Under the pieces are notes generated by a model. That model was given only the letters and a program-made list of their open reading frames with translations, was not told the DNA's origin and did no database searches. From positions 1 through 37,846 of the IMG/VR virus record IMGVR_UViG_3300028586_000049: a DNA stretch of 37,846 bases; one strand, 5' to 3'. The position numbers were made by a program, and so were the translations under genes. Shown one piece after another: positions 4,850 through 37,103 of the stretch (position 1 is the stretch's first letter; each line of letters starts with the position of its first letter). The DNA comes from a virus (taxonomy: Duplodnaviria > Caudoviricetes).

Positions 4850-5277
4850 AGCCGGCAGAAATGATGCTCTTCAAGCCGAAGCGCACGCGCCCCAAATCCG
4901 TCGACCGCGAGGGCTTGGAGCAGGCCTCGCTGCTTCGCGAACTCAAACTGCGTATGCCACTGGTGGCGGCGCTGATCTACCACGTTCCCAACGGTGGCCA
5001 CCGGCACAAGCTGGTCGCGATCAAGCTGAAAGAGCAGGGCGTGCGCGCGGGTGTACCCAATCTGGTGCTGCCGATGGCGCGCGGCGGGTATTTCGGCCTG
5101 TACATCGAGTTCAAGGCCACACCGCCCAATGACGCGGCTGTCTCGGGCAGCCAGTACGAGTGGATACGTCAGCTCAACGCCCAAGGCTATCTGACGATCA
5201 TCTGCCGTGGACACTTCGACGCGATGGAGCAAATCCGCGCATACCTGCGACTTCCTCAGACCGTGGTGGCAGCATGA
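4846..5277 (+). CDS. VRR-NUC domain nuclease
   Basis: HVPNGG...GVRAGVPNL...LYIEFK...Q..W...L (the usual PD reads PN here). Confidence 0.8.
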   Translation: MKPAEMMLFKPKRTRPKSVDREGLEQASLLRELKLRMPLVAALIYHVPNGGHRHKLVAIKLKEQGVRAGVPNLVLPMARGGYFGLYIEFKATPPNDAAVSGSQYEWIRQLNAQGYLTIICRGHFDAMEQIRAYLRLPQTVVAA

Positions 5278-6554
5278 GCCAGACCCTGCTTACCTCGTTT
5301 TCCGACGCTGAAATCAGGCGTCAGGCCGCGAATTCTTCTGTCCGGGATATGCGCGACGCTCGTTACCCAGGCGTGTATTTCCGCTTTCACCAGAATCGTG
5401 ATCGCGGGACGTGGCACCTGGTGGTGGGCAAGAAGTGGGAGAAGATCGCCGGATTTCCAGAGCTGCCTGTGAAGGGACTCATCAACGCGCTGCCGAAAAT
5501 CCGTGAGCGTCTGGCGACTGACCCGAAGGCCTCGGCCGCCGCCGGCACGCTGCAGACTGTTGGCCAACTGCTCGAATGGTTCATGGTCCGGCAGTCCACC
5601 GAGCGCAGCCTGTCGGCAAAGCGCCGGGCCACAAACACCTCGATCATCACCTGCCACCTAAAGCCGCGCCTGGCTGATCTGCTCATTGCTGACGTGGACC
5701 GGTCCACCTTGGACAAATTGGTGATGTGGCCCATGCAGGCCGAAATGTCGCTGTCATATGTCCGGCTGATGTGGGGCGTGCTTGTGGTCGCGTTCCGCCA
5801 GGCCGAGAAACTGCGCCTGATCGCTCAAAACCCGGTAGCCGGGTTCAAGTTCACGGACTTCACCAAGGCGCGCATCCTGCCGAAGCCGTCGCGGCTGCGT
5901 GCCGTCCAGTTGGAAGAGGTATTGGGTGAGCTGGCCGTTGGGTTCGATCAGCACCCGCAGGACTGCATGTTGGCCCTTATGATGCTCTGCCATGGCACTC
6001 GCGCCGGTGAGACGAGGCAGGCCCGCTGGTCGCACCTGACACTGGGCGAGCAGGGCGAGTGGTTCATCCCCGCCGAGAACACCAAGACCCGCTGTGAGCA
6101 TCGTCTTCCGCTGACCCAGCAGGTATGCGCGCTGCTAGAGCGGTACCGGGCTTGGCAGTCGTCGAAGGGCTACAAGGGCGCCTACATGTTCCCGGCTCGC
6201 AACCGTGGACCGATCAGCGACAGCCAGGCCTGCGCCGTGTTCGCTCGCTTGGGCAAGGGCGAGTGGACGAGCCACGACCTGCGCAAAGTTGCCCGGACAG
6301 GCTGGACCGATCTGGGCGTCGACTTCCTGATTGGCGAGATGCTGGTGAACCACACCCTGACCCGCAACGTGCAGACGTACATCCATACCTCGGCCGAGCT
6401 GCTCAAGCGTGATGCCTTGAACAAGTGGCACGAGTGGTTAGACGGGAAAGGCTTTGGCCGCATTCACGGCTCGACCCTGACTAGAAACGAAAATTCGCAG
6501 AATGCCGCCGAGGCCAATACCGGCGCGGCTTCCACCCCGATCACGAATCCATAA
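5274..6554 (+). CDS. Tyrosine recombinase/integrase-family protein in the nin region
   Basis: GTRAGE (R), NTKT (K), HDLRK (HxxR), VNH (H), QTYIH (Y); ATGA-coupled to the upstream gene. Confidence 0.9.
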   Translation: MSQTLLTSFSDAEIRRQAANSSVRDMRDARYPGVYFRFHQNRDRGTWHLVVGKKWEKIAGFPELPVKGLINALPKIRERLATDPKASAAAGTLQTVGQLLEWFMVRQSTERSLSAKRRATNTSIITCHLKPRLADLLIADVDRSTLDKLVMWPMQAEMSLSYVRLMWGVLVVAFRQAEKLRLIAQNPVAGFKFTDFTKARILPKPSRLRAVQLEEVLGELAVGFDQHPQDCMLALMMLCHGTRAGETRQARWSHLTLGEQGEWFIPAENTKTRCEHRLPLTQQVCALLERYRAWQSSKGYKGAYMFPARNRGPISDSQACAVFARLGKGEWTSHDLRKVARTGWTDLGVDFLIGEMLVNHTLTRNVQTYIHTSAELLKRDALNKWHEWLDGKGFGRIHGSTLTRNENSQNAAEANTGAASTPITNP

Positions 6555-8031: not shown

Positions 8032-8110
8032 CTTATCGATCATAAGCACGTCCCCATTCAGGATGTCGCTTAGGTAAACCTCGTTAGTGCGAGGTTGTTA
8101 TTGATTGTTG

Positions 8111-8137
8111 AGGCTCGCCAAATTGGCGAGCCTTTTT
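8111..8137 (+). terminator. Terminator after the moron
   Basis: AGGCTCGCCA-AAT-TGGCGAGCCT-TTTT. Confidence 0.85.
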
Positions 8138-8169
8138 CGTTTATAGACCCCCGAAAGGGCCAAGACCGG

Positions 8170-8493
8170 ATGCGCACTATGCCCGACAAGCCAGACACCT
8201 GGGCCAAGCTCTGGATGGCCCTTTCGAATCCACTATGGCAGGGCGCGATCATGGCAATCATCGTCTCTCTACTGCGCATCCTTTACGACGCAAAAGAAAC
8301 CAGCAAACGCCGGATCTTCTTTGAAGCGTTGATCTGTGGTGCGCTCAGCCTCGTGGCTTCGAGCCTGATCGAGTGGATGGCCTGGCCGCCCAGCCTTTCA
8401 GTCGCTGCCGGTGGAACGATCGGCTTCCTCGGCGTCACTGCCATTCGCGAGTTGGTCACGCGGTTCATTGGCCGGAAGGTGGACATCACATGA
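8170..8493 (+). CDS. Lambda-family (class I) holin with dual start M-R-T-M
   Basis: MPDKPDTW..., three TM segments, EALICG, IGFLG, basic C-terminus; ATGs at 8170 and 8179. Confidence 0.9.
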   Translation: MRTMPDKPDTWAKLWMALSNPLWQGAIMAIIVSLLRILYDAKETSKRRIFFEALICGALSLVASSLIEWMAWPPSLSVAAGGTIGFLGVTAIRELVTRFIGRKVDIT

Positions 8494-12193: not shown

Positions 12194-14155
12194 ATGAACA
12201 GAGCCTACAGCGTCCTTGAGATCAAGGCGGTAGATGAAGAAGCCAGGATCATCACGGGCATAGCCACCACCCCGGCCACAGACCGGATGGACGACGTGGT
12301 CGAGCCAAAAGGTGCGCAATTCAAGCTGCCGATCCCATTCCTCTGGCAGCACCGCCATGACGCCCCGGTGGGCAATGTCACAAAAGCTGTTGTAACCGCA
12401 AAGGGGATCGAAGTCACCGTTCAACTGGCGAAGATCGACGAGCCAGGCACCCTCAAAGACAGGCTCGATGAGGCCTGGCAATCGATCAAAGCTGGGCTGG
12501 TTCGAGGCTTGTCTATAGGTTTTTCGCCCATCGAGTCGGCAAACATCGACGGAAGTTGGGGCCGACGCTTCCTTAAGTGGGAGTGGCTTGAGCTTTCGGC
12601 CGTTACGGTCGCCGCAAATGCCGAGGCGACCATTCAGACCATCAAGTCAATCGACTTGAAGCAGCGGGCCGCGTCTGGCCACTCGGTGCTTCCTGTCGTG
12701 CATCTCGCTACACCCGCCGGCGCTTCGGCACCCGTTATCAAAACTTTCGAAATACCGAAGCCCGAGGAGGGCAACATGAACATTCAGGAACAAATCAAAT
12801 CTTTCGAGTCCTCGCGAGCCGCCAAGGCCGCTCGCCTCGAAGAAATCATGTCCAACGCTGCCGACGAAGGTCGTACGCTGGATGCTGCTGAGTCGGAGGA
12901 GTACGACAACCTTGAAGGTGAACTCAAATCGGTGGACAGCCACCTGGGTCGCCTGCGTGGGCTCGAGAAGTCCATGGTTTCCAAGGCTAAGCCCGTCGAG
13001 CCGAACCGCGTGAACAGCATTCAGAAAGGGAATGAGTTCCGTGATAACGCTGTCATTCGTGTGGAGCGCTCGCTGCCTAAAGGCACCGCGTTTACCCGCT
13101 ACGCGATTGCGCTGGCTCGCTCCAAGGGCAACCTGATGCAAGCGCAGGAGATCGCAAAGAGCTGGGAAGACTCCACGCCTGAAGTACTCACTGTTCTGAA
13201 AGCAGCGGTAGCGGCAGGCACCACCACTGACCCTGCCTGGGCAGCTCCACTGGTCGAATACCAGAACATGTCCAGTGAGTTCATAGAATTGCTGCGCCCT
13301 CAGACCATTCTCGGCAAAATTCAGGGCCTGCGACTGGTCCCCTTCAACATCAAAATGCCGGGCCAAACCTCTGGTTCCAGCGTTGGCTGGGTGGGTGAAG
13401 GCAAGCCAAAGCCGGTGTCGGCTCTGGCATTTGACACCACCACTCTGCGCTTCACCAAAGCCGCCGGTATCGTGGTGCTGACCGACGAACTGGTGCGCTT
13501 CAGCAACCCAAGCGCAGAGGCATTGGTGCAGACCGATCTGACTGCGTCGATGGCCGAGTTCCTGGACGTCGCGTTTGTTGACCCGGCAATTGCCGCGGTA
13601 GCCGATGTCTCGCCGGCCTCGATCACCAACGGCATTACGCCGATTGTTGCGAGCGGCACCACCGCCGAAGCTTTGAAAGCAGACGTGAAGCGCCTTTTCG
13701 CCAGCTTCCTGGCTGCCAACATGACCCCGGCTGGCGCTGTGTGGATCATGACTCCAACCATGGCGCTCACGATCAGCATGATGACGAATGCCCTCGGCCA
13801 GTCCGAATTCCCGGGCATCGACATGAATGGCGGCACCTTCATGGGGCTGCCGGTTGTTGTGTCGGAGAGCGTGCCTTCTAACCCAGGTACAGGCAATCCG
13901 GCCACCGGTGCAGGGCAGCGCCTGATTCTCGCTAAAGCCTCAGAGATTCTGCTCGCTGACGACGGCGGCGTGACCATCGACGTGAGCCGCGAAGCCTCCC
14001 TGCAGATGGACAGCGCGCCAGGCACTGGCTCTCAGGAGCTGGTCAGCCTCTGGCAGAACAACATGGTGGCTTTGCGCGCCGAGCGCTTTATCAACTGGAA
14101 GCGCCGTCGTCCATCGGCAGTCGGTTATATCGACTCGGCCAACTACGAATCCTGA
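12194..14155 (+). CDS. HK97-type prohead protease (S78) fused to major capsid protein
   Basis: N-terminal LWQH...GLSIGF...ELSAVTVAAN; C-terminal HK97-fold capsid motifs (WVGEG, GLPVVVS, N.VALRAER). Confidence 0.93.
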   Translation: MNRAYSVLEIKAVDEEARIITGIATTPATDRMDDVVEPKGAQFKLPIPFLWQHRHDAPVGNVTKAVVTAKGIEVTVQLAKIDEPGTLKDRLDEAWQSIKAGLVRGLSIGFSPIESANIDGSWGRRFLKWEWLELSAVTVAANAEATIQTIKSIDLKQRAASGHSVLPVVHLATPAGASAPVIKTFEIPKPEEGNMNIQEQIKSFESSRAAKAARLEEIMSNAADEGRTLDAAESEEYDNLEGELKSVDSHLGRLRGLEKSMVSKAKPVEPNRVNSIQKGNEFRDNAVIRVERSLPKGTAFTRYAIALARSKGNLMQAQEIAKSWEDSTPEVLTVLKAAVAAGTTTDPAWAAPLVEYQNMSSEFIELLRPQTILGKIQGLRLVPFNIKMPGQTSGSSVGWVGEGKPKPVSALAFDTTTLRFTKAAGIVVLTDELVRFSNPSAEALVQTDLTASMAEFLDVAFVDPAIAAVADVSPASITNGITPIVASGTTAEALKADVKRLFASFLAANMTPAGAVWIMTPTMALTISMMTNALGQSEFPGIDMNGGTFMGLPVVVSESVPSNPGTGNPATGAGQRLILAKASEILLADDGGVTIDVSREASLQMDSAPGTGSQELVSLWQNNMVALRAERFINWKRRRPSAVGYIDSANYES

Positions 14156-14208
14156 GAACGGCGGGCCGGGGATTGCCCCGGCTTACCGCAAGGAAAGGAG
14201 GTATCAAA

Positions 14209-14421
14209 GTGAGAATGGTAGCGCTGAAGGAATTTCGGTACGCCGGTAAGCAGCTTGCTGCAGGCGATTCGTTCGAAGCGGTAGAGAAAGATGTGAAGGT
14301 GCTTCGCGCGATAAAAAACGCGCGAATGGACACCGAAGATTTTCTGCCGGCCGATTCGACTGAGGAAACATCCGGGTCGAAAAAGCGAGTCTACAAACGC
14401 CGGGACATGACGGCAGAATAA
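14209..14421 (+). CDS. Small head-associated hypothetical protein
   Basis: AAGGAGG before GTG; C-terminal YKRRDMTAE. Confidence 0.7.
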   Translation: MRMVALKEFRYAGKQLAAGDSFEAVEKDVKVLRAIKNARMDTEDFLPADSTEETSGSKKRVYKRRDMTAE

Positions 14422-14435
14422 AACGTGGAGCCGCG

Positions 14436-15809
14436 ATGAAATTTTTAACATTTGGCCGTGGCACAGAGGAAAAGTCGCTTCGGCCGGCTGATAATCGCGG
14501 CGGTTGGATCGGCGTTGTGCGAGAGGCATTCGCCGGTGCCTGGCAGAAGAATGTCGAGATCAATCAGGATACGGTTCTTGCCTTCTCTGCGGTATTTGCA
14601 TGCATCACGTTGATCGCATCGGATATCGCGAAACTCAGGCTCAAGCTGGTCCAACTGACTGATGAGCGGATATGGGAAGAGACCACAAGCCCCTCGTTTT
14701 CCCCGGTGATCAAAAGACCCAATCATTTTCAAAACCGAATCCAGTTTTTTGAAACATGGTTTTTGTCCAAGCTCACGCAGGGCAATACCTACGCGATGAA
14801 ACTGCGCGACGGGCGCGGCGTGGTGATCAAACTGTACGTACTGGATCCGCGCAGGGTGACGCCGCTTGTGGCTGATGATGGCAGCGTTTACTACCGCTTG
14901 CTCGCGGACAATCTTTCGACGCTTGAAGATGGGGTGGTGGTACCGGCCAGTGAGATCATTCACGATCGGATGAACTGTCTTTTTCATCCTCTGGTGGGCG
15001 TGTCACCCATCTATGCCTGTGGCCTCGCTGCCATGCAGGGCAATGCTATTCAAAACAACTCCGCGAACTTCTTCCGTAATGGGTCCAAGCCGGGTGGAGT
15101 GCTTACTGCCCCTGGTGCTATCGCAGACGACACTGCGAAGCGACTGAAAGAGCACTGGGACAACAATTTTTCTGGAGAAAACGCCGGACGGGTAGCGGTC
15201 CTCGGTGACAACCTGAAATATGAGGCCATGGCGATCTCTGCCGCTGACTCACAGCTGATCGAGCAGTTGCGCTGGTCGGCTGAGACGGTTTGCTCGGCAT
15301 TTCACGTGCCTGGATACAAAGTCGGTGTTGGCGCTCAGCCAAACAACACCAGTGCAGAGATATCCAACCAGATTTACTACTCTGACTGCCTTCAATCGCT
15401 GATCGAGGCGGCGGAGCTTTGCTTGGATGAGGGGCTTGAGCTGCCAGCTCCGTATGGAACTGAGTTCGATCTCGACGGCCTTTTGCGTATGGACACGGCG
15501 ACCCTCTACAAAGCAAACAACGACGCCGTCGGCGGCGGATGGATGAAGCCAAACGAAGCTAGGCGTAGAGCAGGTCTGGCACCAGTGGAGGGCGGTGACT
15601 CGCCCCTGGCGCAGCAGCAGAATTACTCTCTAGCAGCGCTGGCCAAGCGCGATTCGAAGGCCGATCCGTTCGGGAAAGCCCCCGATGCTGCTGCCCCGGC
15701 GGCTTCCGTCTCGGCACCACCGGCCCCGGAGTCTGACGATGATCTCGCTGACCAGGCGCGGATGCTCGCGCTACTGATAGAGAAGGAATTAACCATTGAA
15801 CCTTCGTGA
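14436..15809 (+). CDS. Portal protein, HK97 family
   Basis: AVFACITLIASDIAKL, GNTY, EIIH, GVSPI, FFRNGSKPGGVL, PNEAR. Confidence 0.95.
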   Translation: MKFLTFGRGTEEKSLRPADNRGGWIGVVREAFAGAWQKNVEINQDTVLAFSAVFACITLIASDIAKLRLKLVQLTDERIWEETTSPSFSPVIKRPNHFQNRIQFFETWFLSKLTQGNTYAMKLRDGRGVVIKLYVLDPRRVTPLVADDGSVYYRLLADNLSTLEDGVVVPASEIIHDRMNCLFHPLVGVSPIYACGLAAMQGNAIQNNSANFFRNGSKPGGVLTAPGAIADDTAKRLKEHWDNNFSGENAGRVAVLGDNLKYEAMAISAADSQLIEQLRWSAETVCSAFHVPGYKVGVGAQPNNTSAEISNQIYYSDCLQSLIEAAELCLDEGLELPAPYGTEFDLDGLLRMDTATLYKANNDAVGGGWMKPNEARRRAGLAPVEGGDSPLAQQQNYSLAALAKRDSKADPFGKAPDAAAPAASVSAPPAPESDDDLADQARMLALLIEKELTIEPS

Positions 15810-24267: not shown

Positions 24268-24516
24268 TTAAGCTTTGCCTGTTATCGCCGTGACGAGATT
24301 GTCGACGTAGCCGTCATGCAGGTCTTTGTTGATGCCTTCATAGTTCTCGCGCTTTAATGCCCTCAGTTCGTTGGCCAGCGCGTTTGATGCTGATTCGTTC
24401 CCAGCGGCGATGCTTCGCCCCAGTACCATAGCAACATTCAAATTGAAGATTATGGAAGTTCTAAGTGCTTGCTCAAGGCTATAGAGCCGTTCATCGATAG
24501 TCATCTCATTCGACAT
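24268..24516 (-). CDS. Accessory hypothetical protein (82 aa)
   Basis: AGGAGA upstream; AT-rich; antisense to the tail operon. Confidence 0.7.
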   Translation of the reverse strand: MSNEMTIDERLYSLEQALRTSIIFNLNVAMVLGRSIAAGNESASNALANELRALKRENYEGINKDLHDGYVDNLVTAITGKA

Positions 24517-24552
24517 TATGATCTCCTAATTTAATTTCCGATTAGATTGGTT

Positions 24553-24813
24553 TTATCTTGCTGAGCCTGTCGTTTGAGTTTTCACTATTAACTCCCACAA
24601 TATCTCTTTCTTGGCGTCAGTGTGCTGATGTTTATTTTGTGGTGGAAAAGGGTCGTATTTGTTTGAGGTTATTTCGTCCCCGCATCCAACGCACCGGTAT
24701 ATTCCAGATACCGGAACAATATCGCCAATCTCATAATGCGTGCGCCAATAGACTGCGGTTTGTTCGTCTGATTGGTTTAGGTACTTCGAAGTGTGTGATG
24801 CGTATTGGGCCAT
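24553..24813 (-). CDS. Accessory Zn-ribbon protein (YjzC-like, Cys2/His2)
   Basis: G..VP.SGIYRC.GCG.EI...PFPPQN.HQH...W.L; GGAG before ATG 24813. Confidence 0.75.
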   Translation of the reverse strand: MAQYASHTSKYLNQSDEQTAVYWRTHYEIGDIVPVSGIYRCVGCGDEITSNKYDPFPPQNKHQHTDAKKEILWELIVKTQTTGSAR

Positions 24814-24970
24814 AACAGAAACTCCATTTACTGGGACGCTAACGCTACTCCACATGGATCCAATCTTGTTACTGGGCATTTACCCACACTGGATGGGCGA
24901 ACAGCTTTTTTGGTTTAACCGAAAAAGCCTGCTTCTCCTCAAGTGTTGTTTCTTCTTTTTGGTGGACACC

Positions 24971-27055: not shown

Positions 27056-27418
27056 TTATAGCTTGTTGTCTTTGTTCTGCTGGCCTTCTATTTTAGTACT
27101 ATTTGCTTTAATCTTAAGTTTGGCCTCTTCGATGCCTGAGCCAATATTAAGTGCGGCTGCCTTTGCTAACCTACTTTGACTGAAGATAGTTCCAAGGCTT
27201 AAGGTTTTCTCTGTAATTTCGTCTCTTTCCTCTTGTCTAAACTTTTTGAAATCTTGATCCAGTTTTTTGATATGTTTTAGCATCAGTTGCGCTAGCTCCC
27301 AGCTGGAGCAGCTACAATGGATATAGTCATTTTCTCTGACATACCAGATTTTTATGAGCTTTGATTTTACTGGCTCTCCGTTTGGGAGTGTTGGTTCAAT
27401 GAAGAAGTTTGTTGTCAT
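27056..27418 (-). CDS. Accessory Lys-rich hypothetical protein (120 aa)
   Basis: AAGGA upstream of ATG; markedly AT-rich; antisense to tail genes. Confidence 0.7.
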   Translation of the reverse strand: MTTNFFIEPTLPNGEPVKSKLIKIWYVRENDYIHCSCSSWELAQLMLKHIKKLDQDFKKFRQEERDEITEKTLSLGTIFSQSRLAKAAALNIGSGIEEAKLKIKANSTKIEGQQNKDNKL

Positions 27419-33741: not shown

Positions 33742-34179
33742 ATGCCTGTAACCGAAAAAGATCGCGACGTATTAGCTCGAACCCTGTGGGGCGAGGCGCG
33801 TGGCGAGGGGTTGCCTGGACAGATCGCCGTAGCTTGGTCTATTCGCAACCGCGTGGAAATGGATCTGCATAACGACGGAAAACCGGATTGGTGGGGGGAA
33901 GGCTATGCCGGCGTATGCCTCAAGCCTTGGCAGTTCAGCTGCTGGAATAAAAACGACCCCAACTACCCGTTCCTCAGTGGCGCAAAGGCGATCCCGTTCC
34001 GCGAGTTCGCCCAGGCTCGAATCGCAGCTGACCAGGTCATTGAGGGCAAGCAGCCGGACCCGACTGGCGGTGCCACTCATTATTATTCAACCACAATGCC
34101 AAAAGCTCCGACGTGGGCGGCCAAGGCTCGGCAAACGCTCAAGCTCGGGCATCACATCTTTTTCAAGGATGTTCCATGA
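33742..34179 (+). CDS. Endolysin, SleB/Hydrolase_2 family
   Basis: LARTLWGEARGE...VA..I.NR...QFSCWN...DPTGGATHY...H.F. Confidence 0.92.
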   Translation: MPVTEKDRDVLARTLWGEARGEGLPGQIAVAWSIRNRVEMDLHNDGKPDWWGEGYAGVCLKPWQFSCWNKNDPNYPFLSGAKAIPFREFAQARIAADQVIEGKQPDPTGGATHYYSTTMPKAPTWAAKARQTLKLGHHIFFKDVP

Positions 34180-34682
34180 GCCAATTCTATTCACGACTCG
34201 GGGCGGCGTTGTTGATCCTGCTGGCCGTGGCTGGTGCGCTGTACGGCGCATACCGGCACGGCGCGAACGTCACGGATATGGCATGGCAGGCGAAGTGGGC
34301 CAAACAGATCAGCACCCAGTCACAGGCCGTGGCCACCACCACGAACGAATATCGAACCGAAGAGCAACGCCGCCAGAAAGCGGCCAACCAGGTGGCAAAT
34401 GATGCGAGACAAGAACAGACCGCTGCGATCGCTGATGCTGTTGTCGCTGACGCTTCTGGCGACCGGCTGCGCAGTGAAGCCGGAAAGCTGGCAGCTTCCG
34501 CTAGTTGCGTGCCCAACGATCCCAGAATTGCCGCTCGAGGCAAGAACGCCACCCGCGCCGCCATGGTGCTCTCCGACCTGCTCAGCCGGGCTGACGCGCG
34601 AGCGGGAGAGCTGGCACGCTACGCTGATCAGCTCAGAATAGCGGGGAAAGCGTGCGAAGCGGCGCACAGCTCCTTGCGATGA
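34176..34682 (+). CDS. i-spanin-like protein (DUF2514-like), set 2
   Basis: N-terminal TM, Ala-rich coiled coil, ELARYAD....G.ACE C-terminus; ATGA-coupled to the endolysin. Confidence 0.85.
   Translation: MSQFYSRLGAALLILLAVAGALYGAYRHGANVTDMAWQAKWAKQISTQSQAVATTTNEYRTEEQRRQKAANQVANDARQEQTAAIADAVVADASGDRLRSEAGKLAASASCVPNDPRIAARGKNATRAAMVLSDLLSRADARAGELARYADQLRIAGKACEAAHSSLR
34399..34641 (+). CDS. Embedded o-spanin lipoprotein (Rz1-like), set 2
   Basis: +1 frame inside the previous gene: MMRDKNRPLRSLMLLSLTLLATG-C lipobox, Pro-rich mature part with three more Cys. Confidence 0.75.
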   Translation: MMRDKNRPLRSLMLLSLTLLATGCAVKPESWQLPLVACPTIPELPLEARTPPAPPWCSPTCSAGLTRERESWHATLISSE

Positions 34683-34737: not shown

Positions 34738-34766
34738 AAAAGCCCAACGCTATGGCTGGGCTATTT
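34738..34766. terminator. Bidirectional terminator between lysis genes and the TIR gene
   Basis: AAAAGCCCA-ACGCTATGGC-TGGGCT-ATTT. Confidence 0.7.
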
Positions 34767-34777
34767 ATTTCTACTTA

Positions 34778-35917
34778 TTATATTATTACCGCTTTGCCAA
34801 AAAGAAGATTTCTAAAGCCAAGTTCTACGGATCGCTCAAGGCTCTGAGAGGGGACGTTCGCAGAGAAACTGCCAGCAGCATAAGGTCCTACTTCATACGG
34901 GCTGAATAATACGGTCAGACCTTTTTCAGTTATTACGCAGTTGTCTTCTGGATGGGAGTTTACGCCTGCATTGATCCACTTCATTGCTTCGCTATCTGGA
35001 AAATCGCCCATTCTTTCCCAGTACTCTCGCTGGATGTCTTGAATACATGCTTTTATAATAATGTTCTTAGCAGCTTGCCAGTCGTCAAAAAGCTCAACAA
35101 TTTCTAGTGGAAAGATCTTTGATCCTACAATCGCAAAGTTATGACATTCGAAATTGGTGTTCGGATGCGCTGCTCCTGCGCCATACAAGCCGACGGTATA
35201 GGACAGACTGACGAAGTGCTCGTCTGCATAAGATATGCTGTAGTGGTCCCAGCGACCATTGTTTGTTCCGAAGCAGCTATCTTCATTCGTCTGATGCCAC
35301 GGCCTGCTACGACTTTTAAGCAAGGTATTATATGCTCGTCCCGCAAAGATGTTAGATAAGGCGATGGCTGCGTCAGGTAGAGTTGCAGAGGTAAATCGGG
35401 GGTAGCTAATTTGGATATTATGACCCGGCATTCCCTCCCAGTCTTCAGAAATTGATTCTTCAAATACTCTAAATGGACCATGCGGGGCGCCAGTCTCTGA
35501 TATTATCTGCTGCTCTATTTTTGCGAGTTCTAGCGATTTTAATACTTTTTCCCAAGACCCATTTTCGAAGTGGTAAACAAATTGAAGTCTATCGCTGATA
35601 TGTGCGGGGACTTCGCATTGTTCCAGTAGAATGGGGATGATGTAGATGTCGGAAAGCAGTTTAGACTTTAGATTTTCCATGGCTTGATTTGCTTCACGCT
35701 GAACAAACCCCCTTTTATTGACGCTGGCTTGGCTCAGGAAAAGCATAACGACGTTCGAATCAGCGAGAGCTTGGTCGATTTCCCAGCTCCAATTTTGTCC
35801 AGGAACCAGCCGTTCGACGTCCATCCACGGTTCAAAGCCGCTGGCCTGTAATTTCGCATAGTAGGGGTGGACCTGAGCCTGATCCGCTTTTGTATAGCTC
35901 AGAAAAACCTTCAGCAT
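34778..35917 (-). CDS. TIR domain fused to RsiV/PdaC-like (DUF4163+DUF3298) domain
   Basis: N-terminal VFLSY...WMD...PGQNW..EI..AL...FLS..S....FVQRE...IIPILLE; C-terminal ISYP, VSL, G.GAAHP, N..I...GL.V.F.PYEVGPYAAG; GGAGA SD; no TM segment. Confidence 0.88.
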   Translation of the reverse strand: MLKVFLSYTKADQAQVHPYYAKLQASGFEPWMDVERLVPGQNWSWEIDQALADSNVVMLFLSQASVNKRGFVQREANQAMENLKSKLLSDIYIIPILLEQCEVPAHISDRLQFVYHFENGSWEKVLKSLELAKIEQQIISETGAPHGPFRVFEESISEDWEGMPGHNIQISYPRFTSATLPDAAIALSNIFAGRAYNTLLKSRSRPWHQTNEDSCFGTNNGRWDHYSISYADEHFVSLSYTVGLYGAGAAHPNTNFECHNFAIVGSKIFPLEIVELFDDWQAAKNIIIKACIQDIQREYWERMGDFPDSEAMKWINAGVNSHPEDNCVITEKGLTVLFSPYEVGPYAAGSFSANVPSQSLERSVELGFRNLLFGKAVII

Positions 35918-36170
35918 AGGATCTCCTTGTCCATTTGTGAGGCCGGTACCCGTTGGGCTGTGATAAAGCTAGCATTACTGAGCCAAAACGGCCCTGAAAT
36001 ACACAAAAAAGGACTGCGTAAAACTCTAACTGATTGACTAATATAGATTGTTTGTGCTGGTCGGGGGGTTAGCCTGCGTCCACGCCTTGCAAACCGGGGC
36101 TGAGAGGTTCGAGGCTGGCATAAAATTATCATTATGTCATTATCGCCATTTTAATCAGGCTGGGTGGTCT

Positions 36171-37103
36171 ATGAGTGATACAGGCTTTGCGATGTTGCTG
36201 AGCAATGTCAAAATTGAACCAGGCCTATTGCCATTTGAAATTGAACCTAAAATAACCATCGTTACGGCCGACGAGTTCCATTCGGCCGAGTTCGTAAAAA
36301 TGATGGCGGCTGGCGGGTATTTTTCTCGCGGCACGGTACCGTTCCAAGCTGAGGTCGTAGAAATCGAGCAGGATGGATGGCGGCGTAGAGAATACCGTGC
36401 TCTTCCTGACGCGGTTCAATATGCAATCGAGTTTAGTGGCTATAACGAACATTTGGTGAACCTTCAGTATGCAGGGCTGCTTGCGTCACCAAAGTTCAGA
36501 TTTGGAATGGAATCGGCGTATCGTGATCCGGGTAAGAAGGTCGTAGGTATACAACAGATGCTTTCCTATCATCAGCTTGAGCTGATGAGCGAAGGTAATA
36601 AACAGCCATACGCACATATTGACGAAACTTACCTGAATAATCTAAGTCATTATCATGGTAAGATTGCAAAGGGCTTCGCAGAGGGGTCGAGGGTAAGTAG
36701 GGCACTCGGTCTTTATGCGAATACAGACAGGTTGGAGACCGAATCCGCATTGCTCACGCTGTCGTATTTTTCGATCATCGAGTCTCTAGTCACTAATGGT
36801 CGAAGTGGCGGCGAAAGCATCACTAATCAGCTGAAGCATAAACTTCAATTAATTCTCCGTCGTGTTATTGGCGCTCCCGATGGCTCGACAATGTTCGGCG
36901 GAATGAAGTATGAAAAACTCTGGTCCAAGCTTTACTGTTTTCGAAGTGACATCGCGCATGGTAATAACTATGATTTTGTAAAAGACTACTCGGCGCTTGA
37001 TTCAATTACTCGTGTTAATCTCTATCTCGACGGCGTGGTAGCTGCACTTATCCGTTTGGCAATTGATGAGCCCGTACTCGTTGAGGATCTTCGCGTTTGC
37101 TAA
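36171..37103 (+). CDS. ApeA-like HEPN domain protein (putative RNase)
   Basis: C-terminal L.YFSIIESL...KL...LY..RSDIAHG (Rx4H); AT-richer; start placed at MSDTG. Confidence 0.8.
   Translation: MSDTGFAMLLSNVKIEPGLLPFEIEPKITIVTADEFHSAEFVKMMAAGGYFSRGTVPFQAEVVEIEQDGWRRREYRALPDAVQYAIEFSGYNEHLVNLQYAGLLASPKFRFGMESAYRDPGKKVVGIQQMLSYHQLELMSEGNKQPYAHIDETYLNNLSHYHGKIAKGFAEGSRVSRALGLYANTDRLETESALLTLSYFSIIESLVTNGRSGGESITNQLKHKLQLILRRVIGAPDGSTMFGGMKYEKLWSKLYCFRSDIAHGNNYDFVKDYSALDSITRVNLYLDGVVAALIRLAIDEPVLVEDLRVC

Follow-up and report, generated by a model that had tools for sequence, protein, structure and literature searches.

The window, by which we mean the whole stretch of 37,846 nucleotides of viral DNA that was analysed, encodes by Pfam a repressor, DnaB, Q, a holin, terminase, capsid, portal and a lambda-like tail, the modules of a complete-looking temperate phage. 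Beside its lysis genes lies a gene in which a TIR domain is joined to a domain of the DUF4163/DUF3298 type. The genes and signals in this part of the window are the following.

34778..35917, minus strand: gene for the fusion of TIR with DUF4163/DUF3298 (RsiV fold), 379 amino acids in one open frame
35923..35928, minus strand: Shine-Dalgarno-like AAGGAG, 5 nt 5' of the ATG of the fusion gene
34741..34762, minus strand: terminator-like hairpin, found by a scan, between the fusion gene and the convergent DUF2514 gene
34176..34682, plus strand: spanin-like DUF2514 gene (Pfam), convergent with the fusion gene and bounding the cargo slot
33742..34179, plus strand: resident endolysin of the SleB type (Hydrolase_2; Pfam), with no hydrophobic N-terminus
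36171..37103, plus strand: low-GC gene of 310 amino acids, divergent from the fusion gene, with an RxxxxH motif (RSDIAHG); a HEPN-like candidate and separate cargo

Pfam places TIR_2 at residues 4-123 (E 5e-22) and DUF3298 at residues 276-356 (E 5.5e-11) of the 379-residue protein, both above cut-off, and an AlphaFold2 model built with 76 homologues as input has a pLDDT of 90.6 and a pTM of 0.86. A hydropathy scan finds no hydrophobic segment in the protein (best 19-residue Kyte-Doolittle mean 1.18), nor does any of the 76 aligned homologues exceed a mean of 1.8, in agreement with an earlier note on this DNA, made from its letters alone, that had described the protein as lacking a signal peptide or transmembrane segment. 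The same note had called the gene AT-rich, which holds relative to the phage part (45.6% GC vs 57.1% in window 1-34700) but not in absolute terms. It was right about a Shine-Dalgarno sequence belonging to the gene. A terminator was also claimed, and a hairpin of 8 pairs with a T tail does lie 16 nt 3' of the stop codon, but such sites are no commoner in the scan than in shuffled sequences (4 vs 3.5 expected), so that their count is not above chance.

The fusion gene sits, as had been noted, in a cargo slot that follows the lysin, confirmed by Pfam as SleB-type, and the DUF2514 gene; the holin gene (8095-8493) is far from both the fusion gene and the lysin. We regard the slot as a variable one because its contents differ among six related prophages, in which the position 3' of DUF2514 holds an Old/PARIS-like ATPase (L087:4763-6457), a retron type V reverse transcriptase (L090:3780-4961), other genes or the end of the contig. 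The contents are defence-like in these first two of the six. Within the DUF2514 gene itself, a nested frame (34399-34641, plus strand) with a lipobox-like LATGC and a proline-rich tail looks by eye like an Rz1 outer spanin.

The divergent gene at 36171-37103 encodes a protein with no Pfam, PADLOC or NCBIfam match, which falls in unnamed Atlas clusters (score 0.97; nearest named cluster MauJ, 0.92) and whose single-sequence model has a pLDDT of 32. A two-gene system made up of this protein and the fusion was considered and rejected, since the neighbour has no tblastn match in the fetched loci and there is no conserved partner. Elsewhere in the window (12194-15809), a protease-capsid fusion of 653 amino acids stands 5' of the portal gene; a small frame on the opposite strand (14143-14529) separates the two. 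The tail region has two low-GC inserts on the opposite, minus strand (24268-24879 and 27056-27418), holding small ORFs with no Pfam or PADLOC match, and a tyrosine recombinase (5160-6554, plus strand) follows DnaB in the replication region and is not at a prophage end.

The N-terminal part of the fusion is defined by two features.

35507..35917, minus strand: TIR domain, residues 1-137 (TIR_2; Z 17.9 to 8IFL; phmmer alignment)
35693..35695, minus strand: Glu75, the glutamate at the catalytic position (FVQRE), from conservation and the alignment with SPARTA

The TIR_2 match scores 79 bits against a cut-off of 28, and the nearest solved structure to residues 1-137 is the TIR NADase of SPARTA (8IFL). 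Glu75, to which the earlier note had drawn attention, is kept in 185 of 185 non-redundant homologues and aligns by phmmer with the Glu of the SPARTA motif VLKEL, which we take to be the catalytic residue. The pattern F-x-S-Y, W31, D33 and R74 is nearly invariant among these 185 TIR fusions; the strictly invariant residues are Phe5, Trp31, Asp33, Trp43, Glu75, His251 and Tyr341. We infer from this conservation that the TIR domain is a predicted NAD-cleaving enzyme with an intact active-site pattern. SPARTA TIR-APAZ (8IFL, 8I87, 8QLO) is its nearest relative by both sequence and structure, with an N-terminal TIR and a conserved Glu as here. In contrast to SPARTA, the fusion has no APAZ, its C-terminus being DUF3298, so that the sensor is unrelated and the PADLOC match covers the TIR part only; no short pAgo is found among the neighbours scanned.

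The remainder of the protein carries three further features.

34784..35479, minus strand: domain of the RsiV/MPT64 fold, residues 147-378, the candidate sensor (fold and profile comparisons)
35159..35185, minus strand: loop 1, YGAGAAHPN (residues 245-253), aligned with the S169 loop of RsiV and two residues longer
34871..34906, minus strand: loop 2, FSPYEVGPYAAG (residues 338-349), aligned with RsiV FDEYEVAPGYMG

The two loops are the DUF4163/DUF3298 hallmarks that the earlier note had recognised, and its proposal that the domain resembles RsiV, the anti-sigma-V factor of Bacillus subtilis, is upheld by structure (Foldseek E 4e-10). Pfam, Foldseek and profile alignment all find the two-part fold of beta-grasp and DUF3298. 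Residues 148-378 align with RsiV (5JEN) at Z 16.5, with an rmsd of 3.9 over 205 residues and 13% identity, and with 3CYG at Z 17.9, PA4972 (4E72) at Z 16.0 and BF2082 (3S5T) at Z 14.4, where the Z scores are a re-scoring of the Foldseek matches; Foldseek also matches the domain to MPT64 (E 6e-7) and SpPgdA (2C1G). The likeness to RsiV extends over the whole DUF4163+DUF3298 fold (profile E 1e-14 with A3) and includes an acidic domain, with a pI of 4.6-6.0 in 40 of 40 homologues. However, the fusion is cytoplasmic, with the TIR in place of the sigma-binding part and membrane helix of RsiV, and no conserved sigma factor, the partner of RsiV, occurs among 560 neighbours of 57 loci. In profiles of the TIR-fusion family, 3CYG and BF2082 score well above RsiV, and RsiV is not a nearer relative of the domain than other DUF3298 proteins are.

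The loops tell the same story at the level of residues. RsiV binds C-type lysozyme through loops, with S169, P259 and Y261 as critical residues (PMC5014341). In loop 2, Tyr341, Glu342 and Pro345 align with Y255, E256 and P259 of RsiV, where the proline is kept in the window copy and in only 35 of 185 homologues; Y261 is replaced by Ala347, with a tyrosine one position earlier, as in 3CYG, BF2082 and PA4972. In loop 1, the ASS of RsiV aligns with Ala250-His251-Pro252, so that S169 corresponds to Pro252. By this profile (sequence) alignment one of the three critical residues is kept, Pro345. His251 in loop 1 and Tyr341 in loop 2, which are kept in 185 of 185 homologues, belong to loops of the forms G-A/G-A-H-G/P and Y-x-V-x-x-Y-A-x-G that are closer to those of MPT64/Rv1980c (2HHI), 3CYG, BF2082 and PA4972 than to those of RsiV, and GAGAAHPN resembles AGGTHPT of MPT64. 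These proteins share the fold, but their solved chains carry no effector domain. Since the loops diverge from those of RsiV and loop 1 is MPT64-like, the binding site is not inherited from RsiV as such.

Fusions of this kind are not confined to the window. A word-seeded search returned 164 homologues, and all of the 120 listed are near full length with both TIR_2 and DUF3298; the nearest named homologue, at 88%, is from Pseudomonas syringae. The genome scan gave 68 loci, part of which match the TIR only, and the viral scan gave 14 with an alignment as the query and nothing with a single protein. The loci span Pseudomonadota, Bacteroidota, Acidobacteriota, Deinococcota and Ignavibacteriota, and within groups they are rare: 3 of 401 Pseudomonas-group genomes (one of them the centre of the sample), 2 of 301 Moraxellaceae and 19 of 5426 E. 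coli genomes. Plasmids contribute two near-full-length matches, and 50,697 GenBank phage records have no tblastn match to the fusion. In 45 of 50 loci, counted with near-duplicates, the gene has a GC content more than 3 points under that of its flanks. Among the 560 neighbours, taken within 6 kb of the 57 loci, only generic domains recur and no partner is conserved. The TIR-DUF3298 fusion is a stand-alone, patchy family that spans several phyla.

Among other places, members are found at prophage ends, in P2-like phages and in satellite-like elements, with copies in prophages or satellites at ten loci (L001, L027, L069, L070, L071, L072, L076, L078, L083 and L084). In E. coli IAI39 (L083) and in L072 and L027, the homologue occupies the edge of an element that looks like a satellite (with integrase, AlpA, primase and capsid E), where it adjoins the truncated capsid gene of a lambdoid prophage. 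At one locus, a gene with a signal-peptide-like N-terminus, an LprI domain and a GAHP motif (L005:8900-9883) lies directly upstream of the TIR fusion on the same strand, an arrangement seen once. Other copies lie beside TraX, relaxase and resolvase genes (L019, L020, L036, L053) or among housekeeping genes (L002, L011, L022, L030, L033).

PADLOC matches (E <= 1e-20) lie near 8 of 48 loci (L001, L004, L007, L009, L034, L037, L040, L080), a count that draws on 158 neighbours picked by hand, nearly all from 412 listed, with no control set, and that leaves out a phage methylase (L035), a group II-type reverse transcriptase (L019) and a partial match (L018). Given the lack of a control and the several copies that have housekeeping genes around them, we call the association with defence neighbours moderate. 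The note had not recognised the architecture among named defence systems, and no model in PADLOC 2.0 or NCBIfam 20.0 covers the full fusion; only the TIR part matches, under the given cut-offs. Our literature search, with subscription journals mostly outside it, found no paper linking TIR or phage defence with DUF3298, DUF4163 or RsiV; these three terms are absent from the main text, as available, of a 2025 survey of TIR signalling (10.64898/2025.12.03.692087), and no paper on WP_000688840 was found.

The same C-terminal domain is joined to other effectors. In a search of the 401 Pseudomonas-group genomes with this domain alone, 9 of 12 matches were fusions to an HNH nuclease, which puts the HNH fusion in 9 of 401 genomes against 3 of 401 for the TIR fusion, and further HNH fusions occur at L064, L065 and L117. 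No caspase fusion turned up in the 301 Moraxellaceae genomes, where the two matches are both TIR.

L096-L104, L117, L064:9977-10966, L065:3046-4011, P0225, P0248, P0268 and P0136: HNH + DUF4163/DUF3298 fusions of 310-330 amino acids, with no hydrophobic N-terminus

Pfam finds both HNH and DUF3298 in all seven scanned (L096, L103, L064, L065, P0225, P0248, P0268), while five that were scanned against PADLOC match no model at E <= 1e-8; in viral contigs, 15 loci match the HNH part and none the C-terminal domain. A single protein of 438 amino acids (P0201) fuses DUF3298 to DUF4062 (Pfam E 1.5e-5, just above cut-off), and another of 653 amino acids (P0167) combines TIR, DUF3298 and a beta-helix; one weak search for fusions of 449-2000 amino acids had found none, and P0167 came from a later profile search. 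DUF4062 has been reported as an anti-phage NADase, in a paper whose available passages do not mention DUF3298 or RsiV (10.64898/2026.09.04.749371).

An exhaustive profile search gave 489 clusters (50% identity) at E <= 1e-30, which include secreted relatives and fragments. The best 150 of the 489 comprise 93 with TIR, 5 with HNH, 1 with DUF4062 (P0201), 3 with TIR remnants, 1 unclear, 39 with 45 or fewer residues before the domain (most of them fragment-like) and 8 others, mostly with signal-like N-termini; the TIR and HNH shares are biased because the profile was built mostly from TIR fusions. A tally of 25 of 401 takes in one unpublished genome, which is left out of all other counts. A hydrophobic segment (13-residue mean >=1.95) precedes the domain in each of the 31 stand-alone relatives that were inspected and in none of 10 HNH fusions (13-residue mean <=1.32); three start codons in this comparison are uncertain. 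Judged by these N-termini, it is likely that the stand-alone relatives are secreted and the fusions cytoplasmic. A quick tree of 72 domains, from which 9 near-duplicate or doubtful rows were left out, needs four changes for TIR, two for HNH and three for the secreted label; on its well-supported branches at least two changes are forced for TIR, and a single origin of HNH is still allowed. Repeated recruitment of the domain to effectors is therefore only suggested by the sequences.

A domain that appears to be secreted on its own but to stay in the cytoplasm when attached to any of three killers is most simply a sensor. This pattern suggests that it forms the cytoplasmic sensor part of an abortive-infection protein, and the C-terminal domain is likely an undescribed sensor of phage. 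The exchange of TIR for HNH or DUF4062, together with the lack of a conserved partner gene, supports the cytoplasmic defence receptor that the earlier note had envisaged. We consider it fairly probable that the fusion is a stand-alone anti-phage sensor-NADase that acts by abortive infection. TIR domains of SPARTA are activated by clustering, and the fusion may work in a similar manner. During infection a phage protein, for which a cell-wall hydrolase is the likeliest candidate, would be made in or delivered to the cytoplasm; the two loops of the RsiV-fold domain would bind it; binding would cluster the TIR domains, as in SPARTA; and Glu75-dependent cleavage of NAD+ would arrest the infected cell. 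NADase activity, clustering and protection are predicted here, and the ligand is put forward more tentatively.

A member of the family has very probably been cloned before. In a study in which 32 clusters of E. coli TIR proteins were cloned, 12 were active and 20 gave no protection against 111 phages, as its available text reports (PMC11350192). The forward primer of cluster 27 of that study, one of five forward primers tried among 31 pairs, has an exact match ~300 bp downstream of the E. coli homologue WP_000688839.1, pointing into the gene, at L084, L085 and L086, and no more than these 3 of 5426 E. coli genomes contain that stretch. On these primer matches, cluster 27 is very probably a TIR-DUF3298 family member. 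For the reverse primer there is a match in L086 alone, next to the IS26 transposase that lies upstream of the gene, at a site that is presumably an IS26 end. Both primers lie on one strand in L086, and therefore the cloned strain must be arranged differently. At the three loci WP_000688839.1 is found by tRNA-Thr or tRNA-Gly at the end of small elements, with IS26 just upstream of it in L086; WP_000688840.1 is the commoner variant in E. coli.

The systems TIR-V and TIR-VI, as well as TIR-IX, of that study resemble the fusion in being single genes with a TIR and a sensor part, and they respond to protein triggers (portal, tail fibre) with cell death (PMC11350192, in part). Cluster 27 is neither TIR-V nor TIR-IX, which we rejected because both are smaller proteins (models of 2,337 and 2,210 rows vs 3,104 heavy atoms for the E. 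coli homologue), and TIR-II or a two-gene system was rejected by architecture. This leaves one of the 20 inactive clones or TIR-VI. An inactive clone is the likelier, because TIR-VI is described as carrying only a short TIR domain (PMC11350192, in part) and the homologue has DUF3298 (E 2e-8). The text and supplements searched from that study contain no link to DUF3298 or RsiV. Both outcomes count against a broad sensor of lysozyme in E. coli, but such a sensor is not thereby refuted, because activity can be masked by the phage panel, by expression and by counter-defence, and because phages are loosely annotated.

A silent clone bears on two other explanations. The TIR may make a Thoeris-like signal for an effector encoded elsewhere, in which case the gene would be an orphan sensor that is silent alone; this would account for a negative result in E. 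coli MG1655, and the TIR part is weakly similar to the ThsB and ThcB4 models. Thoeris ThsB/ThcB also resembles the fusion in joining a TIR to a phage-sensing domain. However, the score against the Thoeris model is far below cut-off (26 bits vs 220), there is no ThsA-type effector beside the fusion gene in the window, no conserved neighbour at the 57 loci and no SIR2, macro or SLOG effector among the neighbours scanned, and HNH, a direct killer, occupies the same position as the TIR, all of which make an orphan sensor improbable. Alternatively, the gene might not be anti-phage at all, and instead guard against a lytic transglycosylase of a plasmid or conjugation system or a secretion-system effector, or be selfish cargo. 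This would fit the moderate association with defence islands, the lack of effect on 111 phages that is probable for the clone, and the fact that some copies adjoin TraX, relaxase and resolvase genes. Against it, the gene recurs in the cargo slots of prophages and satellites, and related prophages have retron and Old-like genes in one such slot; Glu75, too, is strictly conserved. We find this explanation unlikely. The stand-alone sensor-NADase remains our preferred reading.

As to what the sensor would bind, the earlier note had proposed phage lysozymes. Lysozyme is the only known partner of the fold, and RsiV holds it with the two loops whose counterparts are the best conserved in this family (PMC5014341, in part). 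Y255 and E256, through which RsiV contacts lysozyme, correspond to Tyr341 and Glu342; LprI, a lysozyme inhibitor, is fused to DUF3298 in secreted relatives; and the fold has links to PdaC (Pfam) and PgdA (Foldseek). The acidic domain is a weak pointer in the same direction. The loops are conserved in both secreted and cytoplasmic members, and because the loop residues are common to secreted relatives, the class of ligand is suggested to be one found both outside and inside the cell. Against a lysin stand the two of three critical residues of RsiV that are changed, the MPT64-like loop 1 and the specificity of RsiV for C-type lysozyme, with no binding of mutanolysin (PMC4183432, in part). A muralytic phage enzyme is thus a tentative choice of ligand.

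Another phage protein is about as likely. The same sensor-NADase may have an RsiV-fold domain retargeted to a non-muralytic protein, such as a tail fibre or its chaperone, a possibility that we take seriously for several reasons. The loops differ from RsiV at two of the three critical positions, and the failure of MPT64, which has the same two domains, to bind hen lysozyme shows that lysozyme binding need not come with the fold (PMC5014341, in part). Moreover, if cluster 27 is TIR-VI, its toxicity together with the tail fibre of phage #75, seen for the wild-type fibre and not for the mutant one, would name such a protein (PMC11350192, in part), although the short TIR of TIR-VI does not agree with the clear DUF3298 of the E. 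coli homologue, and the loop residues shared with secreted relatives also speak against retargeting.

The domain may instead bind a small ligand, for example a peptidoglycan fragment freed by phage enzymes or by cell-wall inhibitors, and so sense damage. The fold occurs in peptidoglycan deacetylases (PdaC in Pfam; SpPgdA in Foldseek), His251 and Tyr341 are invariant, and there is a weak NCBIfam match to the Rv3036c esterase model (E 0.005, far below cut-off). Muropeptides are, however, recycled through the cytoplasm during normal growth and for that reason would be a poor trigger for a lethal effector. For RsiV, moreover, the signal is lysozyme as a protein, not its muramidase activity (PMC4183432, in part), and we think damage sensing has little chance of being correct.

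If lysins are sensed, a carrier prophage would have to escape its own sensor. The earlier note had read the SleB-type endolysin of the window as possible self-avoidance, though SleB enzymes are also lysozyme-like in fold. Exported SAR endolysins have hydrophobic N-termini, and such N-termini are seen in the lysozymes beside two other copies, a Pfam GH24 enzyme at L069 (2.67) and a GH24-type enzyme recognised by eye at L001 (2.06). No resident GH24 lysin is present in five further viral records (four of them incomplete). Self-avoidance by the type of resident lysin is compatible with 3 of 3 lysins inspected, which lends it slight support because there are three cases and no background rate. The full scenario would be that a secreted fold of lysozyme receptors and inhibitors has moved indoors, perhaps repeatedly, and been wired to TIR, HNH and DUF4062 killers as a receptor for phage endolysins or virion lytic enzymes, whose carriers escape by means of exported (SAR-like) or SleB-type lysins; we offer it with reserve, as a conjecture. 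No paper on an endolysin as the trigger of abortive infection was found in the literature since 2020, nor one on a lysin sensor among the papers listed since 2023.

The fusion works like known TIR sensor-effector proteins but belongs to no named one. A sensor domain that is swapped among three killer domains makes a testable defence family that lacks a named model. If lysins are sensed, a conserved class of phage proteins, needed by nearly every tailed phage, would join the known immune triggers. Anti-phage sensing would then be connected with defence against the lysozyme of animals, and there would be consequences for which phages and lysins are chosen in therapy. With another ligand, this large fold family, for which the papers found name a single binding partner, would gain a second.
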